DNA from: a virus
Taxonomy: Duplodnaviria > Caudoviricetes
DNA length: 64,000 nucleotides
Virus record (IMG/VR): IMGVR_UViG_2744054895_000002
Location: 1 to 64,000 of that record
Direction: 5' to 3' (one strand)
The position numbers and the translations under genes were made by a program. How positions within the stretch are numbered: the stretch's first letter is position 1; each line of letters starts with the position of its first letter. A model generated the notes under the pieces. The model searched no databases, was not told where the DNA came from, and saw only the letters and a program-made list of their open reading frames with translations. Below, piece after piece: positions 16,557-42,151 of this stretch.

Positions 16557-16750
16557 TCTGCTCTTGGGGCGCGGGCTGACTCTCTGGGTACGGGGTCAGC
16601 AACATCGTCAACGACCCCCTCGGCGGCTGCCAGCCATCGCCTCACATGCTGCCTCTCAAGACGGTTGCGTAAGGGAAATTCCCCGGCAATGTCTGTCCAA
16701 CACTGCGATCCTCGTAGCCGATGTGCCGTCATTCCAGGGAGAGAGCAGCC

Positions 16751-17653: not shown

Positions 17654-17695
17654 ACTGACTGTGATGCGGCGCGGGGTCGTTTGCCTGGAGGGGCT

Positions 17696-23711: not shown

Positions 23712-23718
23712 AGCCGCT

Positions 23719-24543
23719 ATGCCGTACGAGTGGCCGCCGCTGGTTCCCGGGGACCCTGACGAGATCGCGCGCCGCGTCGCAGCCGTACTCGAGGAAGCCT
23801 GGCAGCGCCTCGCCAGCAAACAGCGCGAAGTGATCGCCAAGTTCGTGGACAACCCACGGACGCCGTACACCTTGGCGACTCTGGAGGAGTTCAAGCAGTC
23901 GATCCGCGAGTTCCGCAAACGAGTGGATCAGGAAGCCCAGCAGTTCGTACAGCGGCAGCTCCCTCACCTGTACGAGGAGGGCGGGCGCGCGGCCGCCGAG
24001 GCCCTGGGCGTGACCTTCACCTGGACGACGTTCCACCGCGACGCCCTCCAGTCGCTCGCGGCAGACTCCTACGCCGACTTCCTGCGCCGTTCCGAAGAGG
24101 CCGAGCGGATGGCAAACCAGTTCTACCGGGCTGCGCGGGAGGCCGCGCGCCGAGAAGTACCGCTGCTCGCAGCGGGCAACCTGACCGCGAAGCAGGCTGC
24201 GAAGAACCTGGCAGACCGACTCGCCGCCAAGCACAAGCTGGCCCACGTCATTTATCGCAACGGGGCGAGAGTCCCGGTCCGCGCCTGGGCCGAGGCCGCC
24301 ACGCTCGCAAAGTCGGCCGTCGCCTACAACGCTGGCACTCTCAACCGGTCCCGTCAGGCTGGTGTAACGGTGGTCGAGGTCTTCGACGGCCTCGACTGCG
24401 GCTGGACGTCCCATCAAGACCCGGACAAGGCCAACCGGACCTTACGCAGCGTGGAGGACGCAGCTGAATGGCCGATCAGCCATCCTCGGTGCCGCCGCGG
24501 CTTCGGACCTCGCCCGGATGCGGCTGAGCAGAAGCTGCTGTGA
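23719..24543 (+). CDS. Minor capsid / MuF-like head morphogenesis protein
   Basis: C-terminal DGLDC..HPRCRR motif typical of minor head proteins. Confidence 0.75.
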   Translation: MPYEWPPLVPGDPDEIARRVAAVLEEAWQRLASKQREVIAKFVDNPRTPYTLATLEEFKQSIREFRKRVDQEAQQFVQRQLPHLYEEGGRAAAEALGVTFTWTTFHRDALQSLAADSYADFLRRSEEAERMANQFYRAAREAARREVPLLAAGNLTAKQAAKNLADRLAAKHKLAHVIYRNGARVPVRAWAEAATLAKSAVAYNAGTLNRSRQAGVTVVEVFDGLDCGWTSHQDPDKANRTLRSVEDAAEWPISHPRCRRGFGPRPDAAEQKLL

Positions 24544-24741
24544 CGTTCATCGAAGCCGCCAGCGCACATCTCAACGGCGCAAGGAGCCCCAATGAGCCAT
24601 CCGTGCACCGCACAGGGTGCGCCTGCTGACCGGAGGGCGGGCGCTGGGGAATGGCCGTCCCGAGGGTCGCGAAGGGTTCCCCGCGCCATGAGGGCCCTCC
24701 TCTGGGGTTACCGGGGGAGGGCTCTCGCCAAGTGGGCTTGG

Positions 24742-24927
24742 TCAGACCTTGTGACCTTTGGCGTACTCCACGAAGGATGCCCAGGGAGCTGGCAGGAAGG
24801 TCAGGCAGCCGCGGTCTCGATCCTTTGAGTCTCGGACCAAGACCACGGACGAGTCGTTGTCAGCTACCTCGACACAACTGTCGGACTTGGTATATGAGCT
24901 GGTGCGCCACTTCGGTTCTGCTGTCAA
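24742..24927 (-). CDS. DUF397-family protein
   Basis: WRTSSY..CVEVA..VRDSKD signature. Confidence 0.92.
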   Translation of the reverse strand: MTAEPKWRTSSYTKSDSCVEVADNDSSVVLVRDSKDRDRGCLTFLPAPWASFVEYAKGHKV

Positions 24928-24939
24928 AATTGTGGCCTC

Positions 24940-25794
24940 CTAGTTTTCGGACATGCGGTCATAATGGTGAATTGCGGCAAGGATTAGGTCTCTTGCGGGC
25001 TGGCCATAGACGGCAGACTGTCGATGAAACTCGAATGCCTTGCGGTAAAGATCGATTTCCCTCGGCTGCGTTACGGACATCTCCGCAGAGTACGTTTCGA
25101 CCATGACGAGCCGGTCGTCAAACATTGAAAAGCCGTGGCCGAGCCAGAGGGCGAGGGGCGCTGACCGCGGGACGATGCCCAGGCTGAGCCGAGGAAGCGC
25201 CAACACAGCCAACAGTCGGTCGAGCTGTGCCCTCATGACCTCCGAGCCACCGTGGTTCGAGTAGAGAGCCTGCTCGCCAAGGAGCACGTTGAAGATACGG
25301 TTCCCCTCGTAAAGGTACTTCTGCCGTTCGAGACGTTTCGCCACGGCAGCTTCCATGTCGGCTGGCGTATCGTGGAAGTTCGATACCTGATCGAAGACGT
25401 TCTCGGCGTAGTCGGCAGTCTGAATGGTGCCCCAAATCATGTTGGGCTCCCAAATCCTGAACACCTTGGTCTTACGGTAGAGCGGCAAGGACTTCTTCTG
25501 ACGGCTCTCGGCTCCGTCCGCGAGCAGCCGACGCCACTCCATCCATAGCTCATCAATGTGGCGGACTGTCGCGATGAGGTCGCTAGCCTCGGCCTCGTGC
25601 CCGGTCATCTGGCACCAGGTGCGGATGTCGTCCTCGCTGGCGTTCTGCTTGCCGTTTTCGATGCGGGAGACTTTGGATTCCTGCCAACCGGTGGCAGCGG
25701 CGAACGCCCGGCCACTGGTGAACCCCGCATCCTTGCGGAATCCACGCAGCCGGGCGCCCAACGCCTCTCGCGACTCTTGTGCTTGGTTGCTCAC
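24940..25794 (-). CDS. XRE-family regulator with DUF5753-type C-terminal domain
   Basis: LGARLRGFR..WQESKVSRIENG HTH; GTIQTADYA, LGEQAL, VMRAQLDRL; paired with DUF397. Confidence 0.88.
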   Translation of the reverse strand: MSNQAQESREALGARLRGFRKDAGFTSGRAFAAATGWQESKVSRIENGKQNASEDDIRTWCQMTGHEAEASDLIATVRHIDELWMEWRRLLADGAESRQKKSLPLYRKTKVFRIWEPNMIWGTIQTADYAENVFDQVSNFHDTPADMEAAVAKRLERQKYLYEGNRIFNVLLGEQALYSNHGGSEVMRAQLDRLLAVLALPRLSLGIVPRSAPLALWLGHGFSMFDDRLVMVETYSAEMSVTQPREIDLYRKAFEFHRQSAVYGQPARDLILAAIHHYDRMSEN

Positions 25795-25801
25795 TGAACG
25801 A

Positions 25802-26323
25802 TCAGGGCTTGTACTCGTTGTGTGGGATGGACATGTCCCAGAGCAGATCTCGCACACGGATGCACTCAGCGACAACGGCGGGGCTATCGATGATCTGAGA
25901 GCCCAGGACACGCCCCGAGCTGTCGAAGTGCCCGACAGCCAAGAGCTTGTCGTCGAAGAGCCACCAGTCGTTGCCCTCCACAGGGAACACCAGGCCCTCC
26001 GGCAGATGATGACGAGGGAGCCATCGGATGTCCTCGCCGGCTTCCACGTTGAGGTTGGAGGTTGCGCACTCCCACCGGATGTAAGAGCTGTGCGGCTCAG
26101 TGACGACACGCACCCGGCGCACGGTCTTCCCTGACTCGGTGACGCGCCTCATGAGCTGAGTCCACGGCGCCATGAATGAGTCGTCGGCTGTCCCGTTGAG
26201 CCAGCTCTCATATGGGCCCTCCTCGTTGGGGACTGAGTAGTCGTCCCTCAGCTCCAAGTGGAAGGCGTCGTGCGCGAAGCTCTCAAAGAGCCGGTTGCGC
26301 TCGTCGCTGGAGATCAACTCCAC
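25802..26323 (-). CDS. DUF6879-like protein
   Basis: AFHLELRDDY, RRVRVVTEP, AGEDIRWLPR, DWWLFDD motifs. Confidence 0.8.
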   Translation of the reverse strand: MELISSDERNRLFESFAHDAFHLELRDDYSVPNEEGPYESWLNGTADDSFMAPWTQLMRRVTESGKTVRRVRVVTEPHSSYIRWECATSNLNVEAGEDIRWLPRHHLPEGLVFPVEGNDWWLFDDKLLAVGHFDSSGRVLGSQIIDSPAVVAECIRVRDLLWDMSIPHNEYKP

Positions 26324-26702
26324 GCGGTTCCTCCAGTAGCGCGGTGATCGCGGCCTTGGGGACCTCGACCACGGTCTCGTAGTCCGGAATATCCATCGCT
26401 GCAAGGGTCTCGGGGTCGGTCACCTCCCGGCCTTGCACAACGTACGTCCCTCCGGGAGTGAGGACCATGAGGGGGCTCTCAAGGCGCCTGAACTCACCGG
26501 ATGGCAAGCCGTCCTTCTCCAGGTGGTCGAACAGCTCGGTGGGCACCTCCACGGCCGTTTCACCTTCGGGGATGGTGAGCTGCATCAGCAGGTCACTGGC
26601 GTAGATCCTCCATCCCTGGACGAGGTAGGTGTCGCGATCCGTGGCGTAGAGAGTTGGGCAGTCCCCCTGCTTGGAGTCCTTACCAAGGAACCGTAGCTTC
26701 AT
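26283..26702 (-). CDS. Small protein of the type usually upstream of DUF6879 genes (internal duplication)
   Basis: CPTLYATD..YLVQGW; the YxVQG..IPxxETxVEVP unit occurs twice. Confidence 0.75.
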   Translation of the reverse strand: MKLRFLGKDSKQGDCPTLYATDRDTYLVQGWRIYASDLLMQLTIPEGETAVEVPTELFDHLEKDGLPSGEFRRLESPLMVLTPGGTYVVQGREVTDPETLAAMDIPDYETVVEVPKAAITALLEEPRGVDLQRRAQPAL

Positions 26703-26884
26703 GGTTGCTCTCCTGTCCGCTGCCTTGCGCTGATTTGCGCGGCATCACGATGGTTGGTGAGGCCTTCCGGTGGCGTCAACCAGCTTCCTGCAAACTCGCG
26801 CAATCTCCTTGGAGCTTGGCATTGCCGAGGTCTACGGTCGTCTTCACGTCAAGGCCATCCACGGAGAGTGACGAGGGGCCACAC

Positions 26885-27163
26885 ATGGAAAGCGGACAGG
26901 CGAGGCGAGCGGCAGGCGCCAGGACGAGGCGCAGTCTCGGACTCGGGCACTTGGACCACCCCCTGTTGGGCCGCCTCGTCGTGGATCACGCTCACGGTGA
27001 TCGAGTGGGGGTCATGCGAGCTCTTGCGCCTGACGTGGAGGCGCCCAACCCGAATGCAACGATCCCGGGGGCCGAGGCCCGTGCAGTCGCATGGATTGCG
27101 CCGGAGTCGGGGGGTGTGGAGTGGACGACCGATCCCAACTCGATTGAGGGAGCCGCGCAATGA
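26885..27163 (+). CDS. Hypothetical protein divergent from the XRE module
   Basis: ATG after GAGGGG; LVVD..RVGV..AWIAPESGGVEW pattern. Confidence 0.6.
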   Translation: MESGQARRAAGARTRRSLGLGHLDHPLLGRLVVDHAHGDRVGVMRALAPDVEAPNPNATIPGAEARAVAWIAPESGGVEWTTDPNSIEGAAQ

Positions 27164-27453
27164 GATCTTGGCAGTGTGCGGGGAAGGACCTTAAGCGGCG
27201 ACATCAGTTCTATCCGCTGGCGAAGCCCGCTGTGGCCGATGAAGCGCCAATCGGCGCGGCTCCAAGTGTGCTGAACGCGGATGTGCGCGAAGAGCCCTTC
27301 GCCGAGTGGTGGACGGCGTACGGCGGAGAGAGTGACCCTGAGTCGGGAGTGATCTACTTCCCGCCCATCGAATTTGAGCGTTGCCCTTTCGCGTGTAGCA
27401 AATGTGACGGCGAGGAGAATGTGGAGCGCCGCGCATTTGTTGGGTCTATGTAA
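27160..27453 (+). CDS. Hypothetical protein (Cys motifs)
   Basis: ATGA overlap with the upstream gene. Confidence 0.5.
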   Translation: MRSWQCAGKDLKRRHQFYPLAKPAVADEAPIGAAPSVLNADVREEPFAEWWTAYGGESDPESGVIYFPPIEFERCPFACSKCDGEENVERRAFVGSM

Positions 27454-27648
27454 CGAGCCGTGATGGGCTACAACAATCGCGACGCGCCCGACGTGTAGCC
27501 GCAGGCAGCGTAGCCGCCTGGGCTCCGTATCTCGGCTCGCTTCAGCTGCCCTATAACCCTCGCCCCTGCCGGATGTACTGAACCTCGGGGCTCCCCCATC
27601 CTCGGATTCGGGGTTCCCGGCAGGGGGGGCACCACAGGAAGGCCCTAA

Positions 27649-27891
27649 GTGCGCTTACTGACCGGATTGTTCGAACCCCGGAGTGGTCCTGTCGACCCCG
27701 ATACCTGCAATCTGTGTTGTGACCTCCGTGAACTTCTTCAAAAGGTCGGCAGGGAAGGCAACACCCGCCACATTTTGAGGGTCATGACTGTCATGGAGCT
27801 GCACGCAAATTTCGGTCATCGAGATGAAATCGTTGTCCGGGGTGCAGGCGCTTACTCGGCTGGAGGCCATCGTCAACGACGACGTACGTGA
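27649..27891 (+). CDS. Small hypothetical protein
   Basis: GTG after AGGAAGG; CNLCC..H..H. Confidence 0.35.
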   Translation: MRLLTGLFEPRSGPVDPDTCNLCCDLRELLQKVGREGNTRHILRVMTVMELHANFGHRDEIVVRGAGAYSAGGHRQRRRT

Positions 27892-28209
27892 GGCGCCCGA
27901 CCACTGTCCCGTCATGGCCACCTTCAGCCTCTCGCGCCTGCGCCGCGTTCTTGCGCCGGACGCTTGGACGGCCGCATGACCAAGAGACGCCCGCCCCGGC
28001 GAACCGGCTGCTTTCGGCCCGGTTCATCGAGGCGGCTCAAGCCCCGTTCCGGGACAAGGCGCTGACGTGCTCCCGCACGGTCGGCGCCGACCGCCGGTCC
28101 GGTCTGGCCGGGAACCGCTTGGATGGAGTAGCCGGTTGCCTACGCTCCGTCCGGCGCAACCGGGTCATCTGCAACACCACGCGTAACTCAACAAGAAGGG
28201 TGTTAACCG

Positions 28210-28404
28210 ATGAGTGCAAGCACGGTGCAGGACAAGGCCCAGGTGAGGGACATCCCCGAGGTGGTGAGCGGAGCCGTACAGGATCCGTTCGACCTCGATG
28301 TGGACGTCCTGGAGCTGGCCGGCGGGACCGTCCCGCTGATCACGCTGACCGACGACGGCTGCAAGCCCTCGTGCCCGGCCTCCTGCGCCACGAACGTGGC
28401 CTGA
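28210..28404 (+). CDS. lanA: FxLD-family class I lanthipeptide precursor
   Basis: 64 aa; leader DPFDLDV; C-terminal TDDGCKPSCPASCATNVA with 3 Cys plus Ser/Thr; directly upstream of lanB. Confidence 0.93.
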   Translation: MSASTVQDKAQVRDIPEVVSGAVQDPFDLDVDVLELAGGTVPLITLTDDGCKPSCPASCATNVA

Positions 28405-28418
28405 CCGTCGCGGCACCT

Positions 28419-28454
28419 GGTGCTGGTCCGCGCGGAAATACGCGGGCCAGCACC
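28419..28454 (+). terminator. Stem-loop between lanA and lanB (attenuator/stability element)
   Basis: GGTGCTGGTCCGCG..CGCGGGCCAGCACC 14-bp stem with one G-U pair. Confidence 0.6.
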
Positions 28455-28486
28455 ACCCACAGGGACCTCACAGCGACGGGAATCGA

Positions 28487-31400
28487 GTGGTGGGTAGTAA
28501 TCAGCGGCTGTACCGGTGCGCCGACACCGTGTTGTTGAGGGCAAGCGCCCAGGCGGACGTGGCGCTGCCGGAGTGGCCCGACATGCCTGTCGATACACCT
28601 GCGCACGCTGCAGCTTGGACGGCCTGGCTACGGGAAGTCGGGAAGCAGGAAGTAGTCGCCGATGCGATCGAGCAGGCCAGCCCGGGCCTCGCACGACAGG
28701 TCGATGCCGTGCTTACGGCTGGCGAGGTGAATGTGCGCCAGGTGCGGCGCACCGCGTTGTCGGTCGCCCGGTACGTACAACGACTCACCGGCAGAAGTAC
28801 GCCGGCCGGTCTGTTCGCTGGTATCTCCGTAGCATCCTTCGGCTCCGAAGCGGCTGTGCGGTTCGGAACCCGACATCGGCCCGTTGCCAGGGCCGACGCC
28901 TCGTGGCTGGTGCCTGTCGTCACCGAACTGGAGTCCTCTCGCAGGTTACTCGCCCGGCTGCCGGTGATGGTGAACACCACTGCCTTCGTGCGCGGTGACC
29001 GCCTCGTGGTGCCTCACCCGCCGCCGGACAGTGGGGCCGGCCCGGCTCTGGCAGAGGTGTCCGTCCGCAACACGCAAGCCGTCCGAACGACGGTGGCACA
29101 CGCCCAGTCACCCATTCGATTCGACGCCCTCGCCGACAAGCTCGCATCCGAGTTCCCCGCGACACCGGCATCGACCATCGACCAGATGCTCGCAGGCATG
29201 GTCAAGCAACACATCCTCATCACCGCCCTGCACGCACACTCGGGGATCTGTGACGCCTTCGGACACGTCATGGAACAACTGGACATCGCAGGCGCTGAGG
29301 GCATCGCCGAGGTAGCACACCTGGTCAGCAGGCTGCACGAGATCCACAAGATGCTCGACCTCCACAACGAGGACCGTACGCCCTCGGATGCCCGGACACT
29401 CCGCTCGGCGATGACCGCGCGTATGACGGCTCTGGCGCCAGCCGCGAAACGGCCACTGGCGGTGGATCTCCTGGCGGACTGCTCGCTCGTCCTGCCGCAC
29501 CAAGTGGCGAACGAGGCAGAAGCCGCTGCTCACGCGCTTACGCGCTTGAGCTCCTATCCGTCCGGCACCCCAGCCTGGGCGGACTACTTCACGCGCTTCT
29601 TCGCGCGGTACGGGGTCGGCTCGCCGGTGCCACTGTTGGACCTCGTGGACCCCGACGTGGGGCTTGGCCTGCCCGTCGGCTACCTGGGCGGTGACCCGGA
29701 GCCGCCCGAGTCCGTCTCCGCCCGCCACCGGCGGCTCCTCGCCATGGCACAGGCTGCGGCACTGGACGGGTGCCGCGAAATCGTGCTGGACGAACGGCTC
29801 GTGGACGAACTCGCCATGGCCGACCCGGACGCGGTTCAGGTTCCTCCTCACCTGGAGCTGTGCTTCCAGCTTCAGGCCCCGTCGCTTGCCGCGCTGGACC
29901 GCGGGGAATTCGATCTGTGCGTAGTCAGCGCATCCCGGGCTGCTGGCACCATGTCCGGCCGCTTCCTCGACCTCCTGGAGCCGCCGGACCGGGAGCGGGC
30001 GACCACCGTGTTCGACCAGTTCGCGGCCACTGACCCCGAGGTGCTGCCGGTGCAGGTCTCCTCCCCGCCGCTTGACCCGAAGAACGCCCACGTCACACGG
30101 GCCCCTAACCTGCTGCCCGACCTCATCAGTATTGCCGAGCACCGCCCGCCAGACGACCACGTGATCTCTCTGGACGACTTGGCGGTGCAGTGCACCAAGG
30201 AGCGGCTGTTCCTGGTCTCGCTCTCGCGTGGGCGCCGACTGTCCCCGACGATGCTGCACGCTCTGGATCTGCGGGCCCATACTCCTCCACTGGGGCGGTT
30301 CATCGTCGAGGTGGCCAAGGCGCAGCAGGCGTTGGTCACCGGGTTCGACTGGGGTCCGGCCCGTCACCTGCCGTACCTGCCGCGCCTGCGCTACGGTCGC
30401 ACCATCGTGGCCCCCGCCTGCTGGATCCTGGAGTCCAGCGAGCTACCCGGCCGCGATGCCTCATGGGTGGAATGGAGCGAGGCGGTAGCCGAGTGGCGGG
30501 AGCGGCGGGGCCTTCCATTCACTGTCTTCATCACCGAGGGCGACCACCGCCTGAAGCTCGACCTCGACCAGGCCGCCCATCTCCTGTTGCTGCGAGAGCA
30601 CCTCGCCACTGCTGAGTCCGCCGTTCTCACCGAGGCCCCGGCAGCCCCCGCCCACGGCTGGTTCGGCGGACGCCCCCATGAGATCGTGACCACGTTGACA
30701 GCCAGGCGAGCGTCAACGCCACCGCTCGCAACGACCGGCCTACGCATGCCAGTCGAGCGCGGTCACGGCCATTTGCCCGGCGCGCCGCCCTGGCTGCACG
30801 CCAAGCTATATGGGCACCCCGAGCGGCTTCCTCACCTCGTGGCCCAGTACCTGCCGGAGCTGTTCGCCGCGTGGGAAGCGCCACCACGGTGGTGGTTCAC
30901 GCGATTCCGTGATCCTCAGTGGCACATGCGGTTGCGGATCGCCGTCGCGGACGCGGCCGAGTTCGGCATTGCGGCTCAGCGCATCAGCACATGGGCCAGC
31001 GATCTGCGTCGCCGGGGGTTGCTGAGCGATATGCAGTTCGCGAGCAGCTTTCCGGAGACCGGACGCTGGGGGAGCGGATCGGCGATGGACGCCGCCGAGA
31101 ACGTCTTCGCCGCCGACTCCGTCGCCCTGGCCGCCCAGTTCGCAACCCCAAAGCGACCGCACGCGCAAGCCCTGGCCGCCGTCAACTTCGTCTCGATCGC
31201 GTGCGACTTCACCGGCAGCACCGAGGCTGGCATGGCATGGCTGCTCGACCAGCCCCGTGGTGACGCCTCCCGGCGCCTGGATCGCACGCTGCTCAAGACC
31301 GCCGTTCGCCTGGCCGACCCGGCTGACGGCTGGGCTGCCTTGAAGGCAGCACCGGGTGGCATGAGCATCGCCAATGCTTGGTCCGCCCGCAGTCAGGCCC

Positions 31401-31588
31401 TGGCCGACTACCGCGAGGAGTTGGCCCGTGCGGAGGAGGTGCCGGCGGACTCGGTCCTCGATTCACTCCTGCACGCCCACCACATCCGGGCTGTGGGCAT
31501 TGACCGCGACGGTGAGGACACCTGTCGTCGTCTCGCCCGCGCCGCTGCCCTGTCTTGGCGGGCCCGTTGCTCAGGAGAGAGGGGATGA
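28487..31588 (+). CDS. lanB: Lantibiotic dehydratase
   Basis: 1033 aa; RSTPAGLFAG, YLPRLRYG, C-terminal elimination domain WWFTRFRDP..HMRLR. Confidence 0.95.
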   Translation: MVGSNQRLYRCADTVLLRASAQADVALPEWPDMPVDTPAHAAAWTAWLREVGKQEVVADAIEQASPGLARQVDAVLTAGEVNVRQVRRTALSVARYVQRLTGRSTPAGLFAGISVASFGSEAAVRFGTRHRPVARADASWLVPVVTELESSRRLLARLPVMVNTTAFVRGDRLVVPHPPPDSGAGPALAEVSVRNTQAVRTTVAHAQSPIRFDALADKLASEFPATPASTIDQMLAGMVKQHILITALHAHSGICDAFGHVMEQLDIAGAEGIAEVAHLVSRLHEIHKMLDLHNEDRTPSDARTLRSAMTARMTALAPAAKRPLAVDLLADCSLVLPHQVANEAEAAAHALTRLSSYPSGTPAWADYFTRFFARYGVGSPVPLLDLVDPDVGLGLPVGYLGGDPEPPESVSARHRRLLAMAQAAALDGCREIVLDERLVDELAMADPDAVQVPPHLELCFQLQAPSLAALDRGEFDLCVVSASRAAGTMSGRFLDLLEPPDRERATTVFDQFAATDPEVLPVQVSSPPLDPKNAHVTRAPNLLPDLISIAEHRPPDDHVISLDDLAVQCTKERLFLVSLSRGRRLSPTMLHALDLRAHTPPLGRFIVEVAKAQQALVTGFDWGPARHLPYLPRLRYGRTIVAPACWILESSELPGRDASWVEWSEAVAEWRERRGLPFTVFITEGDHRLKLDLDQAAHLLLLREHLATAESAVLTEAPAAPAHGWFGGRPHEIVTTLTARRASTPPLATTGLRMPVERGHGHLPGAPPWLHAKLYGHPERLPHLVAQYLPELFAAWEAPPRWWFTRFRDPQWHMRLRIAVADAAEFGIAAQRISTWASDLRRRGLLSDMQFASSFPETGRWGSGSAMDAAENVFAADSVALAAQFATPKRPHAQALAAVNFVSIACDFTGSTEAGMAWLLDQPRGDASRRLDRTLLKTAVRLADPADGWAALKAAPGGMSIANAWSARSQALADYREELARAEEVPADSVLDSLLHAHHIRAVGIDRDGEDTCRRLARAAALSWRARCSGERG

Positions 31589-32844
31589 CCATGAACCGGG
31601 AAGCGGCCGAACTGACCGCCGCCGCTGTCGCCGACCGACTGGCCAATCCGTCCGCCGCCCAGAAGCTCGGTCTTCCGCAGGGCTGGCACCGACAGTCTCT
31701 CGCCCACGGTGCGGTAGGGGTCGCGTTGTTGCACGTTGAGCGTGCCCGCGCGGGCCTGGGGCCCTGGCAGCGCGCCCACGACTGGCTCGCCTACGCCGCC
31801 GCGGGCCAGGTCGAGTCCTGGGAGGACAGCCATCTCCACTACGGCGTTCCGGCGGTCGCCTTCGCCCTGAACGCCGCAGCCGACCGGCCAGGCCAGTACG
31901 CCCGTGCCCTGGACACCTTGGATCGCAACATCGCGAAGACGACGCGGCGCCGCCTGGAACGTGCCCACGCCCGGATGAACGCTGGCGTCGCGCGTTCAGC
32001 TCTCGCCGAGTTCGACAGCATTCGGGGACTGTCCGGTATCGGCGCGTACCTGTTGAGACGCCAAGCGGACACCGACCTCTTGCGCGACGTCCTCACCTAC
32101 CTGGTGCGCCTGACCGAGCCGGTGAAAGAGGACGGCGAGTTGTTGCCCGGTTGGTGGAGCGATCTGGCCCCCTCCGGCCAGCCCTCACCGGATTACCCGG
32201 CAGGACACGCCAACAACGGCATGGCCCACGGCATCGCCGGTCCGCTCGCTCTGCTCGCCATCGCGGCCCGCCACGGCATCTTCGTGAGCGGCCACCTCAA
32301 CGCGATCCAACGGATCTGTGCCTGGCTCGATCGCTGGCAGCAGGAGAGCGCGGCCGGTCCCTGGTGGCCCGCCCTGGTCACACGCGCCCAGTACCGCGGC
32401 GAGCAGCCGCTCGCCGCCGAGCCGTCCAGACCCTCCTGGTGCTACGGCACTGCGGGGCACGCCCGGTCTCAGCAGCTCGCTGCCCTGGCGGTCGGCGACA
32501 CCTCACGCCAGCAGGCAGCGGAAGGCGCGCTGGCTAGGGCACTCACCAATCCCGAGCAGCTCGCCGCGACGACTGACAGAAGCCTGTGCCACGGGTACGC
32601 CGGCATGGCCCACATCGCCGCGCAGGCAGCCGCCGACGCGCTCACCCCTGACCTCGCTGTTTGTATCCCCCAGCTCCTCGACGTGATCGGTACCGACCCG
32701 GACGTGGTGGCCATTTCCCTCACGCAGGCCGTTGGCGGTGACATCGGGCTTCTGGAAGGGGGAGCCGGAGTCGCGCTGGCTCTCCTCGCGGTCGCAACCG
32801 GTGCTCCGCTCTCCGGCTGGGACGCATTCCTCCTGATCAACTGA
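31585..32844 (+). CDS. lanC: Lanthionine cyclase
   Basis: GMAHGIAG, WCYG and LCHG Zn-ligand motifs, GLLEG; ATGA coupling to lanB. Confidence 0.95.
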   Translation: MTMNREAAELTAAAVADRLANPSAAQKLGLPQGWHRQSLAHGAVGVALLHVERARAGLGPWQRAHDWLAYAAAGQVESWEDSHLHYGVPAVAFALNAAADRPGQYARALDTLDRNIAKTTRRRLERAHARMNAGVARSALAEFDSIRGLSGIGAYLLRRQADTDLLRDVLTYLVRLTEPVKEDGELLPGWWSDLAPSGQPSPDYPAGHANNGMAHGIAGPLALLAIAARHGIFVSGHLNAIQRICAWLDRWQQESAAGPWWPALVTRAQYRGEQPLAAEPSRPSWCYGTAGHARSQQLAALAVGDTSRQQAAEGALARALTNPEQLAATTDRSLCHGYAGMAHIAAQAAADALTPDLAVCIPQLLDVIGTDPDVVAISLTQAVGGDIGLLEGGAGVALALLAVATGAPLSGWDAFLLIN

Positions 32845-32864
32845 CGACTCCGGAAGGCAGCGCC

Positions 32865-34979
32865 ATGCAGACCACGCAGGAGTGGCCGCAGTACGGCATC
32901 GAGTGCGCCGATCGGCACGCCGCCGAGCAGGTGGCAGCCGAACGCCTCAACGCCGAGCTGGCGACCTTGGTCGCCGACGGCGCGATCACCTCTTGGTGGT
33001 TCATCCGCAAGCCGCCCGGCCTGCGGCTCCGCTACCTCCCTGCCGACGGCCGCGCCCACCGACAGCTCAAGGCCCTCTTCGATGCCCTGACTGCTGAGGG
33101 GCGGATCATCCGATGGACCCCAGGCATCTACGAACCGGAAGTCCACGCCTTCGGAGGACGCGCCGGTATGGATGTCGCACACCACCTGTTCCAGCACGAC
33201 AGCCGCAACATCCTCGACTATCTGGCCCGGTCGCAATCTGCCGCCGGAGCCGTACTCGGGCGGCGCGAGCTGGGAATCCTGCTGTTCAGCGTGCTCATGC
33301 GGGGCGCCAGGCTGGACTGGTACGAGCAGGGCGACGTATGGGCCCGGGTTGCCGACGAGCGACCAGCCACGAGTTCGGGGCCTGTCTCTGAGCGGCTGAG
33401 GAAGGCCGTACATCGGTTGATGACCGTCGACGCCGGGCCGACCAGCAGTTTGGTCAACGGAGGGCCACTAGCGGCGCTCACCGACTGGGTCACATGGTTC
33501 GAGCACGCCGGGCAGCAACTCGTGGATCTTGACCGACGCGGAGTCCTGGAGCGCGGACTCCGCGCGGTCATCGCCCACCACGTGATCTTCCAATGGAACC
33601 GTCTGGGGCTGTCGGCCGCAGACCAAAGCACCTTGTCAACCCTGGCAAAAGAGATCGTCATGGGAACGAGGGAAGGCGCCGCGTCGGCGCCGGAGACCAG
33701 CACCGCAAGCACTACCTTCAACGAAGTGAGCACTCAGATGACCGATGACACCCGTACCGCCGAAAGCCTGCGCGAGGAGTTGGCAGACCAGCTTCGCCAA
33801 CAGGGAACGGTGACTACTGACTCGGTGGACGCGGCGGTACGGACCGTGCCCCGTGACGTTTTCGTGCGCCAGTTCAAGCCCGATGCCTCCCTGGAAGAGT
33901 CGTACGCCGACCAGCCGGTCCACACGAAGTTCAACGACTCAGGCGAGTCCATCAGCGCGGTGTCCCAGCCGACGGTGAACGCGCTGATGCTCGAACTCAT
34001 CAATGCCAGGAAGGGCCACAAGATCGAGGAGGCGGGCGCGGGCAGCGGCCTGTTCGCCTCCTACTTGGGGCATCTGGTCGGTCCCGAGGGACACGTCATC
34101 ACGCTCGACGTCGACCAGGACCTTGTCGACGGGGCCCGCGCTGCCGTAGAGAAGGCCGGGGTGAGCAACGTGAGCGTCATCCTCGGCGACGGTGCGGTCG
34201 GCCACCCCGACGGAGCCCCCTACGACCGGATCGTGGCGACTGTCGGTGCCCACGGCATCCCCCAGGCGTGGCTGGACCAGCTCGCCCCCGACGGCCGCCT
34301 CGTCGTGCCGATGCGACTGCGCGGCAGCGTCTCGCGCGCCGTCGCCTTCGAGCGTGACGAAACCGGCCGCTGGCGAAGCGTCCGCAGCGAGATGTGCACG
34401 TTCATGCCCCTGCGCGCAGGAGTGGCCGACGACCCTCGCCGCGTCGTCTCGCTGACCGACGACGGTTCCGTCAAGCTTCAGTTCAACGGAGAGCAGCAGG
34501 CGGACGAGGCTGCGCTGCAGGGAGTGCTCGAACGCCCGGGCACCGAGACATGGTCGGGCGTGACGTTCCGGGGGCCGGAGTCCCCGGAGTTCATGTGGCT
34601 GTGGCTGGCCTGCCGTCTGGACAACGCCTTGAGCCGGATGGAAGTCGATCGTCAGTCTCCCGCTGCCAGCAAGCTCGACCCCATGTTCCGCCCCATGGCC
34701 GTGGCAGAGCAGGGCGACCTCGCTTACCTGACCCTGCGCAAAGCTGACCTGGACCAGGAGGGCAACCAACTCTACGAGGCGGGAGCTATTGGCCACGGGC
34801 CTGCGGGCAAGGAGCTTGCCGACCGGGTGGCCGAGGAGATGGCCGTCTGGCACCGCAGCTTCCGGGGGCGCGACGTGACATTTGAGATTCAGCCGCTCAG
34901 CGCCGCCCCGCTCCACTCGAAGCCTGGTCGCTTCGCCTTCGATAACCCGATCAACCGGATCGTCATCGAGTGGCAGTGA
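32865..34979 (+). CDS. fxlM: Fusion of a LanB-type elimination domain and a PIMT-like O-methyltransferase (FxLD-system methyltransferase)
   Basis: N-terminal WWFIRK..LRLRY, YEPEVHAFGG, HHVIFQWNRLG; C-terminal VPRDVF, SQP, EAGAGSG, PYDRI, QLAPDGRLVVP. Confidence 0.9.
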   Translation: MQTTQEWPQYGIECADRHAAEQVAAERLNAELATLVADGAITSWWFIRKPPGLRLRYLPADGRAHRQLKALFDALTAEGRIIRWTPGIYEPEVHAFGGRAGMDVAHHLFQHDSRNILDYLARSQSAAGAVLGRRELGILLFSVLMRGARLDWYEQGDVWARVADERPATSSGPVSERLRKAVHRLMTVDAGPTSSLVNGGPLAALTDWVTWFEHAGQQLVDLDRRGVLERGLRAVIAHHVIFQWNRLGLSAADQSTLSTLAKEIVMGTREGAASAPETSTASTTFNEVSTQMTDDTRTAESLREELADQLRQQGTVTTDSVDAAVRTVPRDVFVRQFKPDASLEESYADQPVHTKFNDSGESISAVSQPTVNALMLELINARKGHKIEEAGAGSGLFASYLGHLVGPEGHVITLDVDQDLVDGARAAVEKAGVSNVSVILGDGAVGHPDGAPYDRIVATVGAHGIPQAWLDQLAPDGRLVVPMRLRGSVSRAVAFERDETGRWRSVRSEMCTFMPLRAGVADDPRRVVSLTDDGSVKLQFNGEQQADEAALQGVLERPGTETWSGVTFRGPESPEFMWLWLACRLDNALSRMEVDRQSPAASKLDPMFRPMAVAEQGDLAYLTLRKADLDQEGNQLYEAGAIGHGPAGKELADRVAEEMAVWHRSFRGRDVTFEIQPLSAAPLHSKPGRFAFDNPINRIVIEWQ

Positions 34980-34980
34980 G

Positions 34981-36114
34981 ATGGATGCCAGCCAGATAAC
35001 GCGAAGGTTCCCTCTGGTCGCTCGCCCTCGCCCCGCATGCACGCCACTCGACGAACGGGTTCGCGAGATCGGCGCCCTCGCGCGAGAGGCAGAACACGAA
35101 GGGCGCATGGCACTGGCCGCCACGGCGTTCAACAAAGCCGCGCTGCTGGCCAGCGACTGCGACCTGCCCGAGCTGGCTCGCGCTCTGTGCTGGCGACATT
35201 CCGAGGTGTACCTGCGCACCCAGCCACTGGGTGCGCAGGTCGCCCGGTACGGTCTGGAGCCCTTGGTCAACCTCGCCCGGTTGCTGATCCGCTCCGGCGA
35301 CGGCGAAGCCGCTTACGTCCTCCTCGACTCCATGTTCCAAGCAGTGAAATCCGGCTCGGACACCGTCATCGATGGGCGAACTGTGTCCTTCGAGCACATC
35401 ACCGGATCAGACGAAAACCGCCGTGAGCTGTACCAGTGGCTGTGGGCCGTACTGCTCGCCGACGGCGCCCGCGCTCTGGCCAGCGCGGGCCGGTGGACGG
35501 ATGCACTGGCCCAGCTCAAGCGCCACAAGGGGATTGGCAAGCGGATGTTCGACGGTCGCCAAGTCGCGGTGATCGCTGACCTCACGGCAGACAACGCATT
35601 CGGGGCCATGACCCTCCTGGCCGACACCGTCCCGGGTGAGCCCTGGGAGAACGCCGTCACGGCTTGCCTGATGGTGATGTCCCGACGGCAGGCTGGCTTA
35701 CCGGTCGATCGCGAACTTGCCGAGTTGCTGGACTGCTACCAGCGACTTGACCGCCCGGCGGAGTTGGCCGTCTTCCACACCCGGTTGGGCCTCTCTGTCC
35801 TCGACATCGCCGATGGCGTTGGCGAGGTGGTTGCCCATCGCATCGCGACGAACCTCATTGGTCAGACGGTGGCGACATCAGATGGATACGCGGCCCGTGA
35901 CGTGCTGGCCCACGTGGGCTGCTCCGCACTCCTGACGAGTGCCCAAGCCCAACAACTCGGCCACGCGGTGGAAGCCTGTGCCCTCGGTAGAGGCCACATT
36001 CCCGTAGAAATGCGAACCGACTTGATGGCCGCGCTCGATCTCAGTGAAGGAGTGCTCAGGCAAACGTTGGCTGCAACACCCCCGTGCGGCCGGCCCCCGG
36101 CCTTCGACCGGTGA
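34981..36114 (+). CDS. Helical hypothetical protein at the end of the lanthipeptide operon
   Basis: Starts 1 nt after the fxlM stop; FPLVARPRP, NKAALLASDC, EPLVNLARL motifs. Confidence 0.75.
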   Translation: MDASQITRRFPLVARPRPACTPLDERVREIGALAREAEHEGRMALAATAFNKAALLASDCDLPELARALCWRHSEVYLRTQPLGAQVARYGLEPLVNLARLLIRSGDGEAAYVLLDSMFQAVKSGSDTVIDGRTVSFEHITGSDENRRELYQWLWAVLLADGARALASAGRWTDALAQLKRHKGIGKRMFDGRQVAVIADLTADNAFGAMTLLADTVPGEPWENAVTACLMVMSRRQAGLPVDRELAELLDCYQRLDRPAELAVFHTRLGLSVLDIADGVGEVVAHRIATNLIGQTVATSDGYAARDVLAHVGCSALLTSAQAQQLGHAVEACALGRGHIPVEMRTDLMAALDLSEGVLRQTLAATPPCGRPPAFDR

Positions 36115-36158
36115 ATCTACAAGCGGCGCAACGTGGTGGAACGGTGCTCGCAACTGAC
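36088..36158 (+). mobile_element. IS5-family transposase remnant
   Basis: Reading through the stop gives GRPPAFDR*IYKRRNVVERC, matching the recalled C-terminal signature of actinobacterial IS5 transposases. Confidence 0.6.
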
Positions 36159-36364
36159 GGGCCAGGTAGTCGAGTTCGCCGTAGGGTAGAGCGACGCAGT
36201 CCGGAGCTCGTGATCAGGCCAACTGACGCAACTCTGCCCAGTGCGTGCGGCTACGGCCTTATCGTGCGGGTACGTGGATGAAGACGAATTCGGCCGCGGG
36301 CTCGCCGAGCTGGAGATAAGGCCCGATCCGAGACCGGCACGAGCAGAATAGGAAGGGGAATTGC

Positions 36365-37014
36365 GTGTCCGCTCCGCCGTCGCTCGGGCCTGTCGCACGC
36401 TTGCGTGAACACAACGAACGGGTCCTGAGGCTGCGTCAGGACATCCGGGAGGTGACCCTTCGGCAGCGTCTGATGTACGGCTTCGGTGCTGGTGTCGTGC
36501 TCTGCGTCCTCGGCGTCGCCGTCCCTACAGCACTGACGTGGCGGCGCTTCAACATGGCACCCATCAACACGGTGCTCGTTCTCCTGGCCGTCGTATCTGT
36601 TGTTGGGTTCATTGCGTCCTCATCGATGGAAACGATCAGACGCGCAGGCTCACGGCCTGACACTTTTGGGGAACGGCTGACTCGCCAGGAGCTGGAGCTG
36701 GATCTCGAAATCGCTATTGAGAACAGGCTCATCGACGCGACCCCGCTAGACATCCCCATCCGCAACAGGCAGTTCGCCTAGGCATCACCGGGTACTACAA
36801 GTTCCGCGAACGCAGCTTCAACCTGCAGCAGACCGCGGACTCGATCGAAGAGCACGCCAACGCTTTCCACCTCGGCCTGCCGCCCTACGACAGCACCGAC
36901 CCTGCGGCCAACCTGGCGCTCCTGACTGCCAAGGTCGAAACCCTCCGAGTGGAACAAAGACGCCGAGAACAACAACTTGACCAACCGCCGGAAACTCGCG
37001 ACCAGTCCGGCTGA
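36365..37014 (+). pseudogene. SLATT/DUF4231-like membrane protein, broken by an internal deletion or frameshift at ~36780
   Basis: First part (2 TM helices) stops at TAG 36779-81; another frame starting at 36781 continues GITGYYKFRERSFNLQQTADSIE to TGA 37014 without its own start. Confidence 0.6.
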
Positions 37015-37389
37015 TCCTTAGCCTCAGCAGAGCCCAGGGAAGGCCGCCACACGCTGTCGGTCAGCCCGGCAGCTTGTCGGTGTTGTCACTTGGCGGCACA
37101 GCCCCGTGAGCCTTCGGCAGCGGCTGCCCAGGTGACGGGCCCCGGAGTGAAAGCGTCCTGCCCGACCGGCCGTGTTTGAACGGTGTCGACGGTCACGAAG
37201 CCGCTCGGCCCGCCGTACAGGCGGGCGATGGGACGGCTGAGCCTAGTGCGGGCCGACGCCAGGTGCCCGTGGCATTGAACCTCGAGCCGTAACACGACTG
37301 ATCACGGTCGCGTGGCTGGCCCGCCAGACGCTGCTCAGTTTCGGCGTTTCTGTGGCGGCGCTGATGCTTGATGACCATGCTGGTCAGCT

Positions 37390-38262
37390 ATGGGTAATGA
37401 GCCGTCGCCGGAGAGATCATCCTCGTCAGTGTCGAGGCAAGTTGGTCGTTTGTTTGGCGTCTCCGTGGGTGTCGGAGCGGCGATGACCGCGGGGATTGCA
37501 TGGGCCGCAAACCGGTTTCCCGAAGGACCTTCGCCCCAGGGCCTTGCAGCCTTACTGGGGGCAGGAGCCGCGGTTGTGGGCGCCGGGCTCGCGGTTGTGG
37601 CCATTTGGCAGGGGCGCCAGGCTGACCGAGCCATCGATGCCGGTCGTGAACGTGTTCGTGAGGCCGAGCGCGGGGTGGAAGGTGCTCTGGCTGCTCCCTC
37701 CGGATCGGCAACCACCGTGGTGGTGACCAACGGGGGCCCTGCGGTGACCGGAGAGGCGGAGGTGACAAACGATCGCCGAGATCTGGCACTGGCCCGGTTG
37801 TGGTCACTGACTCATCGACGGTTGGACCTTTATCACGAGATTGCCACGAACCAGGCACGGCGTTCGTTCGTGAGCGCACAGATCTCAATGGTGATCGGCT
37901 TTGCGCTGCTAGTGCTGTTTGTCGTCCTGGCCTTGAACGTGAGCAGCACCACCGGCGCAATTGTGACGGGCGGTCTTGGGGCGGTCTCGGCAGCTCTGGC
38001 CGGATTCATCAGCAAGACTTTTGTGAAGTCCCAGCAGTCTGCGGCTGATCACCTCAAGGCATACTTCGATCAGCCGCTGGAATTCTCCCGCTACCTGGCA
38101 GCAGAGCGGTTGCTGGCCGACGCGGGTCTGCCCGATGAGAAGCGGGCTGATGTTGTCTCCGTGTTGGTTCAAACGATCGCGGCCGGGCCCGGGCCTGACG
38201 CTCCCTTGGGTTCGAATGGACTGGCGCAACAGTTGCAAGACCTGCTGCCCGGTCAGCCATAG
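37390..38262 (+). CDS. Membrane protein with TRADD-N-associated-type 2TM domain
   Basis: YHEIATNQARRSFVSAQISMVIGFALL followed by two TM helices; two further N-terminal TM helices. Confidence 0.65.
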   Translation: MGNEPSPERSSSSVSRQVGRLFGVSVGVGAAMTAGIAWAANRFPEGPSPQGLAALLGAGAAVVGAGLAVVAIWQGRQADRAIDAGRERVREAERGVEGALAAPSGSATTVVVTNGGPAVTGEAEVTNDRRDLALARLWSLTHRRLDLYHEIATNQARRSFVSAQISMVIGFALLVLFVVLALNVSSTTGAIVTGGLGAVSAALAGFISKTFVKSQQSAADHLKAYFDQPLEFSRYLAAERLLADAGLPDEKRADVVSVLVQTIAAGPGPDAPLGSNGLAQQLQDLLPGQP

Positions 38263-38392
38263 CCAGGGTCCCCCAGTACTCCGTGCCACTCAAACTTCGA
38301 TGCCACAAACCTGGTGATCATCAAGGTTCGATGGCACAGGATAGGGGCACAGAGAATCCGAACTGCCTGGTTCCGCGGCTAGGCTCGAACAC

Positions 38393-38824
38393 ATGAGCGT
38401 GCCTACTGAAGGGCTGACTCTGGGGGCCGTCAGCGCGATCGTCGAGAAGAAGATCCTTACCAACAAGATCCGGATCTATCGGCCTGGCGAGCCGGTGTTC
38501 AACCCGGATACCGGACAATACGAGCCTGGCCCACCCGTCACCATCTACGAAGGCTCGGGTGCGCTCTTCCCCGCGGGCGGCCCATCTGTTGTTCTGCACC
38601 TCGCGGGACAGGCATACGTGGATGACACCCCGTCCCGGTACCGTCTCCTGACGCCGTTGTCGGCCCCAGTCGCCTCCCGCGAGGACACCGTCGCCGTCAT
38701 CGAGGCCGAGGATGAAGCGGCCATCGGCCGAACGTGGCGAGTGCTCGACGTCGGGGAGACCTCCACGCTGAGCATCGTCCGCACCACGTGGGTGGACCAG
38801 AACACCCAGACGGCGGGGGAGTGA
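38393..38824 (+). CDS. DUF6093-like head-tail joining protein, copy 1 (possibly leaderless)
   Basis: IRIYRPGEPVFNPDTG..IYEG motif; TAGGCT 7 nt before the ATG. Confidence 0.7.
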   Translation: MSVPTEGLTLGAVSAIVEKKILTNKIRIYRPGEPVFNPDTGQYEPGPPVTIYEGSGALFPAGGPSVVLHLAGQAYVDDTPSRYRLLTPLSAPVASREDTVAVIEAEDEAAIGRTWRVLDVGETSTLSIVRTTWVDQNTQTAGE

Positions 38825-39291: not shown

Positions 39292-39696
39292 ATGGAGATC
39301 ACGGACACTCCGCCCGCCGACATGCAGAAGGTAAGGATCACGGCAGACGGCAGTAAGGCGTCGATACAGATAGGCGGAATCGACTACTCGCGCGTCGTCT
39401 CCGGCTACACGATCCACCAACAGGCTGGACAGGAACCCGACTTGGTTATCCAGCTCGCCAAGGGACGCAACAGCCCCGACTTCGACGGCTACGCCCGGGT
39501 CGCCATCGGCGTCCCATACGAGCCGGGCCCGGCGGCGGCCCATTTCCTGTCGGCCATCGACGCGAGCCTGCTGGAGAAGGCGGCACTCGCCCGCCCCGAC
39601 CTCGACGGCGGCCCGCACGGATTCACAAAGGCTGTACTGGCACAGCTCCAGCAGTGGGCGCGGGGGGAGTTCGACCGAGCCCAGGAGACGAGCTGA
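39292..39696 (+). CDS. Hypothetical protein (possibly leaderless)
   Basis: TACGCT 6 nt before the ATG; TGATG coupling to the next gene. Confidence 0.6.
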   Translation: MEITDTPPADMQKVRITADGSKASIQIGGIDYSRVVSGYTIHQQAGQEPDLVIQLAKGRNSPDFDGYARVAIGVPYEPGPAAAHFLSAIDASLLEKAALARPDLDGGPHGFTKAVLAQLQQWARGEFDRAQETS

Positions 39697-40127
39697 TGGC
39701 ATCCCCGCAGAACCCTCACCTCAATGCGCACCCGCTGGCGGGGGCGTACTCGAACGCTCCGCAAATCGCGGCGCGGCTGAACGCCCGCGCGGCAGCCGCG
39801 CTGCCTGCTGTGGCCAGCGTCGTCCAGCACTACGCCATGCTGCTGGAGACGAGGATCAAGGCCAACGCAAGCGGCAGGCCGGGACCGAACGCGCCGACCG
39901 GCGACTACCGGCGTTCGTGGACACACGAGTTCATCACCAGCGGCATGACCGTCGAGGCGGTCGTCGGCACCAACAAGCCTCAGAGCAGGCGCTTGGAGTA
40001 CGGCTTCGTCGGCGCCGACAGCCTCGGGCGGATCTACAACCAGCCGCCGTTTCCGCATGTTGGACCGGCCGTCGAGGAGATCCGCCCTGCCTTCCTGGCC
40101 GCAGTCGGAGCGGCGGTGGGCGGCTGA
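39696..40127 (+). CDS. HK97 gp10-like neck/tail-completion protein
   Basis: PTGDYRRSW, RLEYG, PPFPHVGPA motifs. Confidence 0.8.
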   Translation: MASPQNPHLNAHPLAGAYSNAPQIAARLNARAAAALPAVASVVQHYAMLLETRIKANASGRPGPNAPTGDYRRSWTHEFITSGMTVEAVVGTNKPQSRRLEYGFVGADSLGRIYNQPPFPHVGPAVEEIRPAFLAAVGAAVGG

Positions 40128-40558: not shown

Positions 40559-40693
40559 CAGCGCGCCCACCTCACCGCGGAGGCCCATCGCGGACGCCCG
40601 GCCACTCGGTACGGGCTGACTCCCAGCTTGATCCATTGGGGACGGGCCTGCCGTATTCCGGAGCCATCAGCGTCCCCGGAGAGTGAGAGTCGC

Positions 40694-41191: not shown

Positions 41192-41204
41192 GCGGGGGTG
41201 CTGC

Positions 41205-42148: not shown

Positions 42149-42151
42149 CCA

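Follow-up and report, generated by a model that had tools for sequence, protein, structure and literature searches.

More than 2000 class I lanthipeptide clusters of actinobacteria have been described as a family first named lanthiphages (Shomar et al., bioRxiv 10.1101/2024.06.26.600839). The later name, lanthivirins, is used by Chen, Zhu and van der Donk (bioRxiv 10.64898/2026.08.26.747419), who cite a Cell Host Microbe 2026 version of that work. We compared with this family a five-gene cluster at 28210-36114 of a 64,000-nucleotide stretch of viral DNA, the first 64 kb of the IMG/VR provirus record IMGVR_UViG_2744054895_000002 (78,095 bases). The whole stretch is called the window below, and coordinates refer to it. 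The cluster, which we assign by sequence to the lanthivirins of the coi type, lies among the structural genes of the provirus. The system itself is already described, and the value of the window is in its context.

According to the available passages of the first preprint, the clusters combine LphB and LphC with LphD and LphE, or a fused LphDE (PF14028+PF01135), and with a hypothetical protein, LphF. Five of them guard Streptomyces against phages and leave adsorption unchanged. Their expression left the growth of the producer unaffected, and spent medium or cell extracts were without effect on viability or phage replication. Late transcripts of the phage were lost or reduced under expression, and the mutations of escaper phages lay in a GNAT gene of the phage. 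ABC transporters adjoin only 18.3% of the clusters, and the motif TXDXCXXXCXXXC is found in 57% of the cores. Passages of the second preprint assign a reaction to CoiH, a protein also called LanH or LvnF. Co-expression experiments with NMR showed that CoiH oxidises the methyllanthionine in the A-ring of CoiA1, which becomes a sulfoxide. Four residues of CoiH (Asp59, Asn97, Arg100 and Leu332) were essential, and three homologues (KitH, LydH and PauH) acted on the same T-D-D/N-G-C ring. As far as the available text goes, LvnF is present in some lanthivirin clades only. In prophages of Streptomyces, Sharma et al. (2023) reported several lanthipeptide clusters of class I, again as seen in passages of that paper. 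A study of 824 actinobacterial genomes (PMC9903846) held nothing on prophage lanthipeptides.

The earlier note on this DNA, made from the letters alone, had identified five tightly coupled genes at this place, and its identifications were right when compared with Pfam, NCBIfam and an alignment with NisC. All five are on the plus strand. The first, lanA (28210-28404), encodes a precursor of 64 amino acids with an FxLD leader; the NCBIfam model TIGR04363 (FxLD family lanthipeptide) matches it with 39.9 bits against a cut-off of 30. The leader motif is FDLD at residues 27-30, and the C-terminal part, ...TLTDDGCKPSCPASCATNVA, carries T47-D-D-G-C51, C55 and C59. A six-frame motif search of the surrounding island found no second precursor, leaving lanA as the sole one there. 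The second gene, lanB (28487-31588), encodes a full-length class I dehydratase with a glutamylation domain (PF04738, 716.7 bits) and its own glutamyl-lyase domain (PF14028, 130.2 bits). It is followed by the cyclase gene lanC (31585-32844; PF05147, E 3.3e-46). The AHG, WCYG and CHG motifs of its product pair with the same motifs in the NisC chain 2g02_A; the catalytic His and the zinc ligands (Cys/Cys/His) are expected in these motifs. The fourth gene, lanS_A or LvnDE (32865-34979), encodes one protein of 704 amino acids, in which a second glutamyl-lyase domain (PF14028, residues 7-262) is fused to a PIMT-type O-methyltransferase domain (PF01135, residues 303-517). The model TIGR04364 (methyltransferase, FxLD system) matches this protein with 420.6 bits against a cut-off of 320, as for a methyltransferase dedicated to FxLD precursors. 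The last gene, lanH (34981-36114), encodes 377 amino acids and had no match in Pfam, NCBIfam, PHROG or PADLOC. Its homologues and conserved residues, treated below, place it in the LvnF/CoiH family as a putative methyllanthionine sulfoxide-forming enzyme.

The last 4 bases of lanB are also the first of lanC; 20 nt separate lanC from lanS_A, and 1 nt separates lanS_A from lanH. All five open reading frames (ORFs) are intact with coding-type GC content at third codon positions (GC3) of 0.76-0.89, the value of lanH being 0.76 in its own frame. The largest gap, 82 nt between lanA and lanB, contains a stem-loop whose stem is about 17 bp long (28416-28457, plus strand). The 101-nt segment around it (28395-28495) folds with -49.8 kcal/mol (z -2.0), and 7 of 200 shuffled sequences fold as well. 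Stem-loops after lanA act as attenuators in other lantibiotic operons, and this one is a possible attenuator.

This gene set has every part of a lanthivirin cluster. The class I core enzymes LvnB and LvnC are represented by PF04738+PF14028 and by PF05147, the fused LvnDE (PF14028+PF01135) by the 704-residue lanS_A product, and LvnF by the gene at the operon end. The core T47-D-D-G-C51-KPS-C55-PAS-C59 matches TXDXCXXXCXXXC exactly, and its A-ring sequence T-D-D-G-C is the one that the substrates tested with CoiH, KitH, LydH and PauH have in common. The link to lanthivirins that the earlier note had drawn is thus borne out by gene set and core motif. Its proposal of a new system does not stand: lanthiphage_Sco, or coi, has exactly this gene set, with LanA, LanB, LanC, a fusion of PF14028 and PF01135, and a hypothetical protein. 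We conclude from the sequence that the window holds a coi-type cluster of a family that is already described.

The coi cluster of S. coelicolor A3(2), as given in the available passages on it, has an FxLD precursor, LanB, LanC, a fusion of glutamyl-lyase and methyltransferase (CoiS_A/LvnDE) and LanH. It shares with the window the T-D-D-G-C A-ring within the TXDXCXXXCXXXC core, the essential LanH residues and the lack of a transporter or protease. It differs in having three precursor genes against one in the window. The window cluster, for its part, lies within a prophage structural region, and its activity is a predicted one. A coi-like locus of S. coelicoflavus (L053) served as the stand-in for coi and CoiH, and we took it as the orthologue on the CoiA1 numbering of its precursor, in which A36, D43, D44 and P48 match the published positions. 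The proteins of this locus are only about 51-63% identical to those of the window. The earlier note had regarded the Pro/Lys-containing core as atypical. It fits the family motif and resembles CoiA1; a KPSC-type core was present at other loci as well, among them L053, whose precursor differs from that of the window at two positions, and we rejected the idea of an atypical core.

For LanH, 8000 candidates were scored and 1420 of them proved to be homologues at E<=0.001; these were nearly all unnamed and actinobacterial. A scan of genomes with the LanH alignment confirmed 460 loci, and the analysis below uses the best 80 of these; S. coelicolor is not among the 80. Within 10 kb of the 80 loci, LanB was found in 74, LanC in 74 and LanS_A in 77. 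The LanH of the window is 52% identical to that of L053 over 341 amino acids (E 4e-120). Its residues D59, N97, R100 and L335 pair with D59, N97, R100 and L332 of L053 LanH, and all four are invariant in 39 aligned homologues, which are 42-85% identical to it. We therefore assign the gene at 34981, on these sequence grounds, to the LanH/CoiH/LvnF family, with sulfoxide formation as its putative reaction. The same homology and the four conserved essential residues led us to reject the role that the earlier note had suggested for it as a candidate for self-resistance.

Some of the LanH loci were unusual in other ways. Streptomyces sp. NPDC001530 (L028) carries an orphan lanH, 79% identical to that of the window, with no lanB, lanC or lanS_A within 10 kb. 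Streptomyces sp. NPDC058045 (L056) has tandem lan clusters, in the order lanS_A-lanH, several lanA, then lanB-C-S_A-H, and a weak homologue of a phage connector-region gene follows them. In six assemblies assigned to differently named species of Amycolatopsis and Saccharopolyspora (L038-L043), 10-21 kb around the LanB/C/S_A/H cluster are 99.6-99.99% identical in nucleotide sequence. This identity reflects either a mobile element that spread very recently or mislabelled or contaminated assemblies.

A second described system of the FxLD type is olv of S. olivaceus, with OlvA and OlvS_A (Acedo et al. 2019, as reported in passages of a citing paper). It likewise belongs to class I and has a PIMT-like methyltransferase that acts on the conserved Asp of the A-ring and leads to isoAsp. 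OlvS_A lacks a glutamyl-lyase domain, and the olv-type clade 7 is said there to lack the syn-lyase domain. The fused N-terminal lyase domain makes the lanS_A product of the window one of the CoiS_A type, and because the cluster has both this fusion and LanH, it is of the coi type and not of the olv type. The likeness to OlvS that the earlier note had pointed out thus holds for the predicted methylation of Asp but not for the architecture of the enzyme.

The position of the cluster inside a prophage, also proposed in that note, was supported by PHROG matches to structural genes on both sides. On the left are the large terminase (12862-14949), the portal (17681-19528), scaffold and decoration genes, and the major head protein (21974-23029, plus strand; phrog_29, E 6.2e-62). 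The last backbone gene on this side encodes a head-module protein (23554-24543, plus strand; phrog_37388, E 4.2e-106, with weaker matches to minor head proteins), which has 9 relatives in IMG/VR at 83-90%. On the right, the first backbone gene belongs to the connector region (38393-38824, plus strand; phrog_13779, E 1e-41). It is followed at 39654-46423 on the same strand by Neck1 (39654-40127), the major tail protein (40628-41191), chaperone-like genes and the tape measure (42152-46423), with matches to phrog_5, phrog_2491, phrog_991 and others, and then by minor tail genes. An endolysin gene (52013-52888), a replication module at 54-58 kb and a DNA methyltransferase gene lie farther right. 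The left end of the record has integrases and then ParB-like genes. The lan cluster is thus within the provirus, between the head and the connector/tail modules of a siphovirus-like element. An error in the provirus boundary cannot explain it, because it sits in the middle of the virion-gene region and not at the prophage edge. The host of this prophage is most probably Streptomyces. Prophage-borne class I clusters are the phenomenon reported by Sharma et al. (2023) for Streptomyces; unlike the present analysis, the available passages of that paper give neither a position in the phage genome nor a comparison with sibling phages.

Comparison with sibling proviruses delimited a cargo island of 13.85 kb (24522-38373) at the head-tail junction. 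Two siblings, G001 and G002, resemble the window at about 84% in nucleotide sequence as far as 24521 and again from 38374 onwards; between these points the lan genes alone match, at about 68%. The backbones are close (major head protein 97-99% identical, portal 94-95%, terminase about 92%, first connector gene 90-92%, tape measure 86-90%). The siblings have a cassette at the same junction, with two lanA genes and with LanB 52-53%, LanC 62-63%, LanS_A 68% and LanH 65% identical to those of the window. A third cassette, in Streptomyces sp. MMS24-I31 (L104), is more distant (LanB 44%, LanC 54%, LanS_A 49%, LanH 48%) and is separated by 58 bp from the connector and tail genes that follow it; these show 90-96% identity to their counterparts in the window. 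In more distant phages, the cluster and the connector genes are again adjacent, with gaps of 79 bp in S. malaysiensis JCM 10672 (L059) and 88 bp in S. zagrosensis (L095); in S. aureocirculatus (L057) connector genes begin 3.7 kb after lanH. According to passages of the first preprint, the cluster tested there came from another S. malaysiensis assembly than JCM 10672. Altogether, homologues of phage proteins of the window were found at 5 of the 80 genomic LanH loci, one of them weak.

Other siblings have a caspase-WD40 protein, a thymidylate-synthase-like protein, an aldo-keto reductase or proteins of no recognised kind at this junction. In a distant relative (L026, major head protein 55% identical) the two flanking genes are about 320 bp apart, with no island between them. 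The backbone of one phage on both sides, with an island that is replaced or absent in relatives, is what defines prophage cargo (a moron). The head-tail junction is therefore a recurrent variable cargo slot with turnover of cassettes. This is a modest new point: we found no description of such a slot, only two general statements on prophages, in the passages of the literature covered.

A tree of the cyclases suggested that phage-borne cassettes do not form one lineage. The LanC tree has 77 rows, 7 of 83 loci having been dropped for lack of a LanC match of 330 residues. Its 9 phage-linked rows need 7 label changes, and starred branches force at least 5 of these; the count is approximate, because the label "non-phage" rests only on a search with the window phage proteins within 10 kb. 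The phage label was hardly more clustered than shuffled labels, 44 of 500 shuffles being as low. The LanC of the window pairs with a chromosomal one (L029) at 100* support, apart from the sibling phages. On this sequence comparison, phage-borne cassettes are polyphyletic.

The earlier note had advised a survey of prophages for the same cargo. A scan of IMG/VR with a LanH profile confirmed 13 records besides that of the window; class I clusters in Streptomyces prophages as such were already in print. Related connector genes directly follow lanH in 4 of the 13, and 6 of the 13 start at lanH itself (L110-L113, L115 and L118). Three of these six (L111, L112 and L118) represent another type of phage, in which lanH is followed at a distance of 1-3.3 kb by a large gene for the portal (phrog_2662, E 1e-80 or better). 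Lanthivirin clusters therefore adjoin structural genes in more than one phage lineage. In five host genomes, the prophage is split into two IMG/VR records at the junction (L004/L019, L005/L023, L009/L024, L010/L021 and L011/L017), and biosynthetic cargo seems to be systematically trimmed from provirus calls. One IMG/VR record of 134,012 bases (G004; L012/L116) has direct terminal repeats and a CheckV completeness of 100%. Its LanB/C/S_A/H cluster is 43-52% identical to that of the window, and it may be a large phage or phage-plasmid, a putative virus.

We consider it likely that the window holds a complete coi-type lanthivirin cluster as cargo between the head and the connector/tail modules, and that its product acts inside the cell to block superinfecting phages in the lysogen. 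The steps below follow the characterised coi and olv enzymes, which serve as the model for the chemistry. LanB would glutamylate Ser and Thr residues of the LanA core and then eliminate glutamate, and the second lyase domain, in LanS_A, would make the other isomer of dehydrobutyrine (Dhb). LanC would close the thioether rings, three in all, of which the first joins T47 to C51. The PIMT-type domain would methylate the second Asp of the A-ring, giving an aspartimide and then isoAsp, and LanH would oxidise the A-ring thioether to a sulfoxide. The product is probably an intracellular, triply bridged, Asp-methylated and sulfoxidised peptide.

The peptide would stay in the cell because exporter and protease genes are lacking, as the earlier note had observed. 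The ABC ATPase model PF00005 had no match in the whole 78,095-base record (the control was positive in 14 of 14 genomes), nor had the subtilase (S8) model PF00082 (control positive in 8 of 14 genomes), and no transporter or peptidase domain was found in the island ORFs scanned. Of the LanT/LanFEG, LanP and LanI genes that mark a classical exported lantibiotic of the nisin type, none was recognised there. No recognisable immunity gene was found in the 78-kb record; since several small island ORFs have no family match, the absence of such a gene cannot be shown. In the lysogen, judging from the family, the peptide would block late transcription of superinfecting phages, and the prophage would thereby protect its host and itself. 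On this reading the lysogen would express the cluster, virions would carry it and the carrier phage would tolerate its own product. As to tolerance, no GNAT was found in the record with PF00583, PF13508 and PF13302, the positive controls working in each search; this is weak evidence, because the phage GNAT of Shomar et al. was described as unlike known enzymes and only three Pfam models were used. A prophage arming its lysogen with an intracellular anti-phage ribosomally synthesised and post-translationally modified peptide (RiPP), as the note had envisaged, would match the action reported for the family.

Three other explanations were weighed, all of them less likely than lanthivirin cargo. 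The peptide might serve the cycle of the phage itself rather than exclude rivals, for instance as a late-expressed factor, as a signal or by modifying development or transcription in the host. The lan operon is co-directional with the structural genes, with the head module on one side of it and the tail module on the other. Late transcripts could read through it, the search for terminators ahead of it gave nothing convincing, and the process reported to be affected by the family is phage transcription. However, three minus-strand genes (those for a DUF397 protein, an XRE-type regulator and the protein at 26283) lie between the head genes and lanA, and the cluster has its own regulator pair. 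The siblings swap the cassette for unrelated cargo and one relative is without it, so the cassette is dispensable for the phage cycle. Its nearest relative, moreover, is chromosomal (L029). We regard a role in the phage's own cycle as unlikely. It is somewhat less probable still that the cluster is silent or decaying cargo of a defective prophage. The record, with a CheckV completeness of 86%, is cut within an integrase gene and has a transposase-like gene at about 68.7 kb, and the related clusters L029 and L030 look interrupted, by crude gene calls. Yet the five lan ORFs are intact and coding in character, their catalytic and essential residues are kept, and none of the structural genes is shortened; their identity to the counterparts in several other proviruses is 85-99%.

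The Bacillus phage SPbeta reportedly carries a complete RiPP cluster, for sublancin, as lysogenic-conversion cargo, an account that Dragos et al. are said to have given in 2021. Sublancin, an antibacterial glycocin, is exported, and its cluster includes genes for transport and immunity. Both this cluster and that of the window are complete RiPP clusters on a temperate phage; the latter lacks an exporter and belongs to a family reported to act on phages inside the cell. A weapon like sublancin, in the form of a secreted lantibiotic with which the prophage would kill non-lysogens, is very improbable: phage-borne bacteriocin clusters are reportedly known, and many lanthipeptides are antibacterial (bioRxiv 10.1101/2024.06.26.600839, in the passages available), but neither an ABC transporter ATPase nor an S8 protease nor any recognisable gene for immunity was found in the 78-kb record, and family members spare the growth of the producer while their spent media and extracts are inert on cells and on phage replication.

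Several observations weigh against reading the cluster as functional anti-phage cargo of an active phage. The integrity of the prophage is unproven: the record is estimated as incomplete by CheckV, as said above, its start falls within the integrase gene on the left, and its att sites could not be placed. Among 50,697 deposited phage records, none had a LanC homologue, so virion packaging of such a cluster is undocumented in that collection. PADLOC, applied to 10 proteins (those of lanC, lanH and 8 flanking ORFs) with a library from 2023, before lanthivirins were described, gave nothing on lan genes or island neighbours and one weak match, to an Mrr gene. A scan of the island for consensus promoters and terminators found no excess over shuffled sequences (1 against 1.0 for promoters, 6 against 6.4 for terminators), so that transcription units could not be drawn. 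The data sets listed for 27000-36900 were ten of DNA or contigs, each with a share of 0.29 or less, and none of RNA, from which nothing follows about expression. The only relative with an empty site is the distant L026, and recent insertion in the lineage of the window is not directly shown. The LanC tree comprised cyclases of LanH-linked clusters only, with no non-defensive class I outgroup, and its "non-phage" label means that no homologue of the window phage proteins was found within 10 kb.

The rest of the island gives a mixed picture. On the minus strand, opposite to the lan operon, are genes for a DUF397 protein of 61 amino acids (24742-24927; PF04149, 59.7 bits) and for the adjacent XRE-type regulator with which it is paired, of the HTH_31+DUF5753 type (24940-26109; PF19054, E 7.2e-30; PF13560, E 2.9e-10; phrog_9908). 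This pairing recurs in the G001 island, and a DUF397 gene also adjoins the nearest chromosomal cassette, in L029. The next minus-strand gene (26283-26702) encodes 139 amino acids and had no match in Pfam, PHROG or PADLOC; homologues of its product, at 43%, adjoin lan clusters in L054 and L069. The upstream genes in G001 and G002 include two for proteins of the endonuclease/exonuclease/phosphatase family. A stretch of 103 bases in the window (27845-27947) is 82.5% identical to the 3' end of such a gene in the G001 island, and is probably a relic of ancestry upstream of lanA that the two islands have in common.

Two plus-strand genes follow lanH. One (36365-36781) encodes 138 amino acids with a hydrophobic central stretch and no family match in PHROG, Pfam or PADLOC. 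The other (37390-38262) encodes 290 amino acids with two transmembrane (TM) segments; it matches PF20712 (CyanoTRADDas_TM) with 29.6 bits against a cut-off of 24.3, has a sub-threshold match to SLATT_fungal and none in PADLOC, and is possibly separate defence or abortive-infection cargo. Both are absent from G001, in which the connector gene begins about 120 bp after lanH. The earlier note had taken the neighbours of the cluster for defence genes. This is partly supported by the 2-TM protein and by a weak Mrr match that lies outside the island; on the other side, only 3 of 10 flanking ORFs were matched by Pfam (the HTH_31+DUF5753 regulator, the CyanoTRADDas_TM protein and Mrr_cat), and one of these is a regulator.

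The Mrr match belongs to a second, small insertion in the backbone, between the terminase and portal genes (14955-17653). This insertion has a minus-strand restriction-endonuclease-like gene (Mrr_cat, PF04471, 32 bits) and an ORF of 310 amino acids with low GC3 (0.62) and no family match. In a sibling (L008), this terminase-portal position is occupied by an Mrr homologue at 42%. A transposase-like gene lies at about 68.7 kb of the record. No tRNA gene was found by scanning the window together with the record's right end, and no att site was identified. The provirus also carries two ParB-like genes (4843-6069 and 9612-11216). A megablast search of 38000-62000 against deposited phages gave one match only, of 303 bases at 77%, to Micromonospora phage pMLP1. 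The major head protein matched 403 records of deposited phages, all at less than 60% identity. The best match was Streptomyces phage ZL12 at 45.6%, and so the provirus has no close cultured relative. ZL12 is described as a plasmid-prophage, and the provirus may have a plasmid-like lifestyle or a partition system.

The window offers a clean case, in which a full RiPP pathway of 8 kb lies amid a provirus with head, tail, lysis and replication modules all present. Tentatively, and with some doubt, we propose more: that this widespread lineage of temperate Streptomyces siphoviruses has a dedicated slot for such cargo, that whole clusters are swapped with host chromosomes and with other phages, that phages are major vectors and diversifiers of lanthivirins, and that the carrier tolerates its cargo by lacking the GNAT target. 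The lack of a Pfam-recognisable GNAT in the carrier gives an idea of how a phage might carry a weapon that acts on phage transcription. As provirus calls often stop at the island or split around it, surveys of phage-borne biosynthetic clusters may undercount them. Siblings with structural proteins 85-99% identical hold, at the same point, lanthivirin cassettes that are 44-68% identical or cargo that is unrelated. This contrast suggests that temperate phages move and shuffle lanthivirin clusters, and it provides natural sets of alleles for the question of phage specificity.

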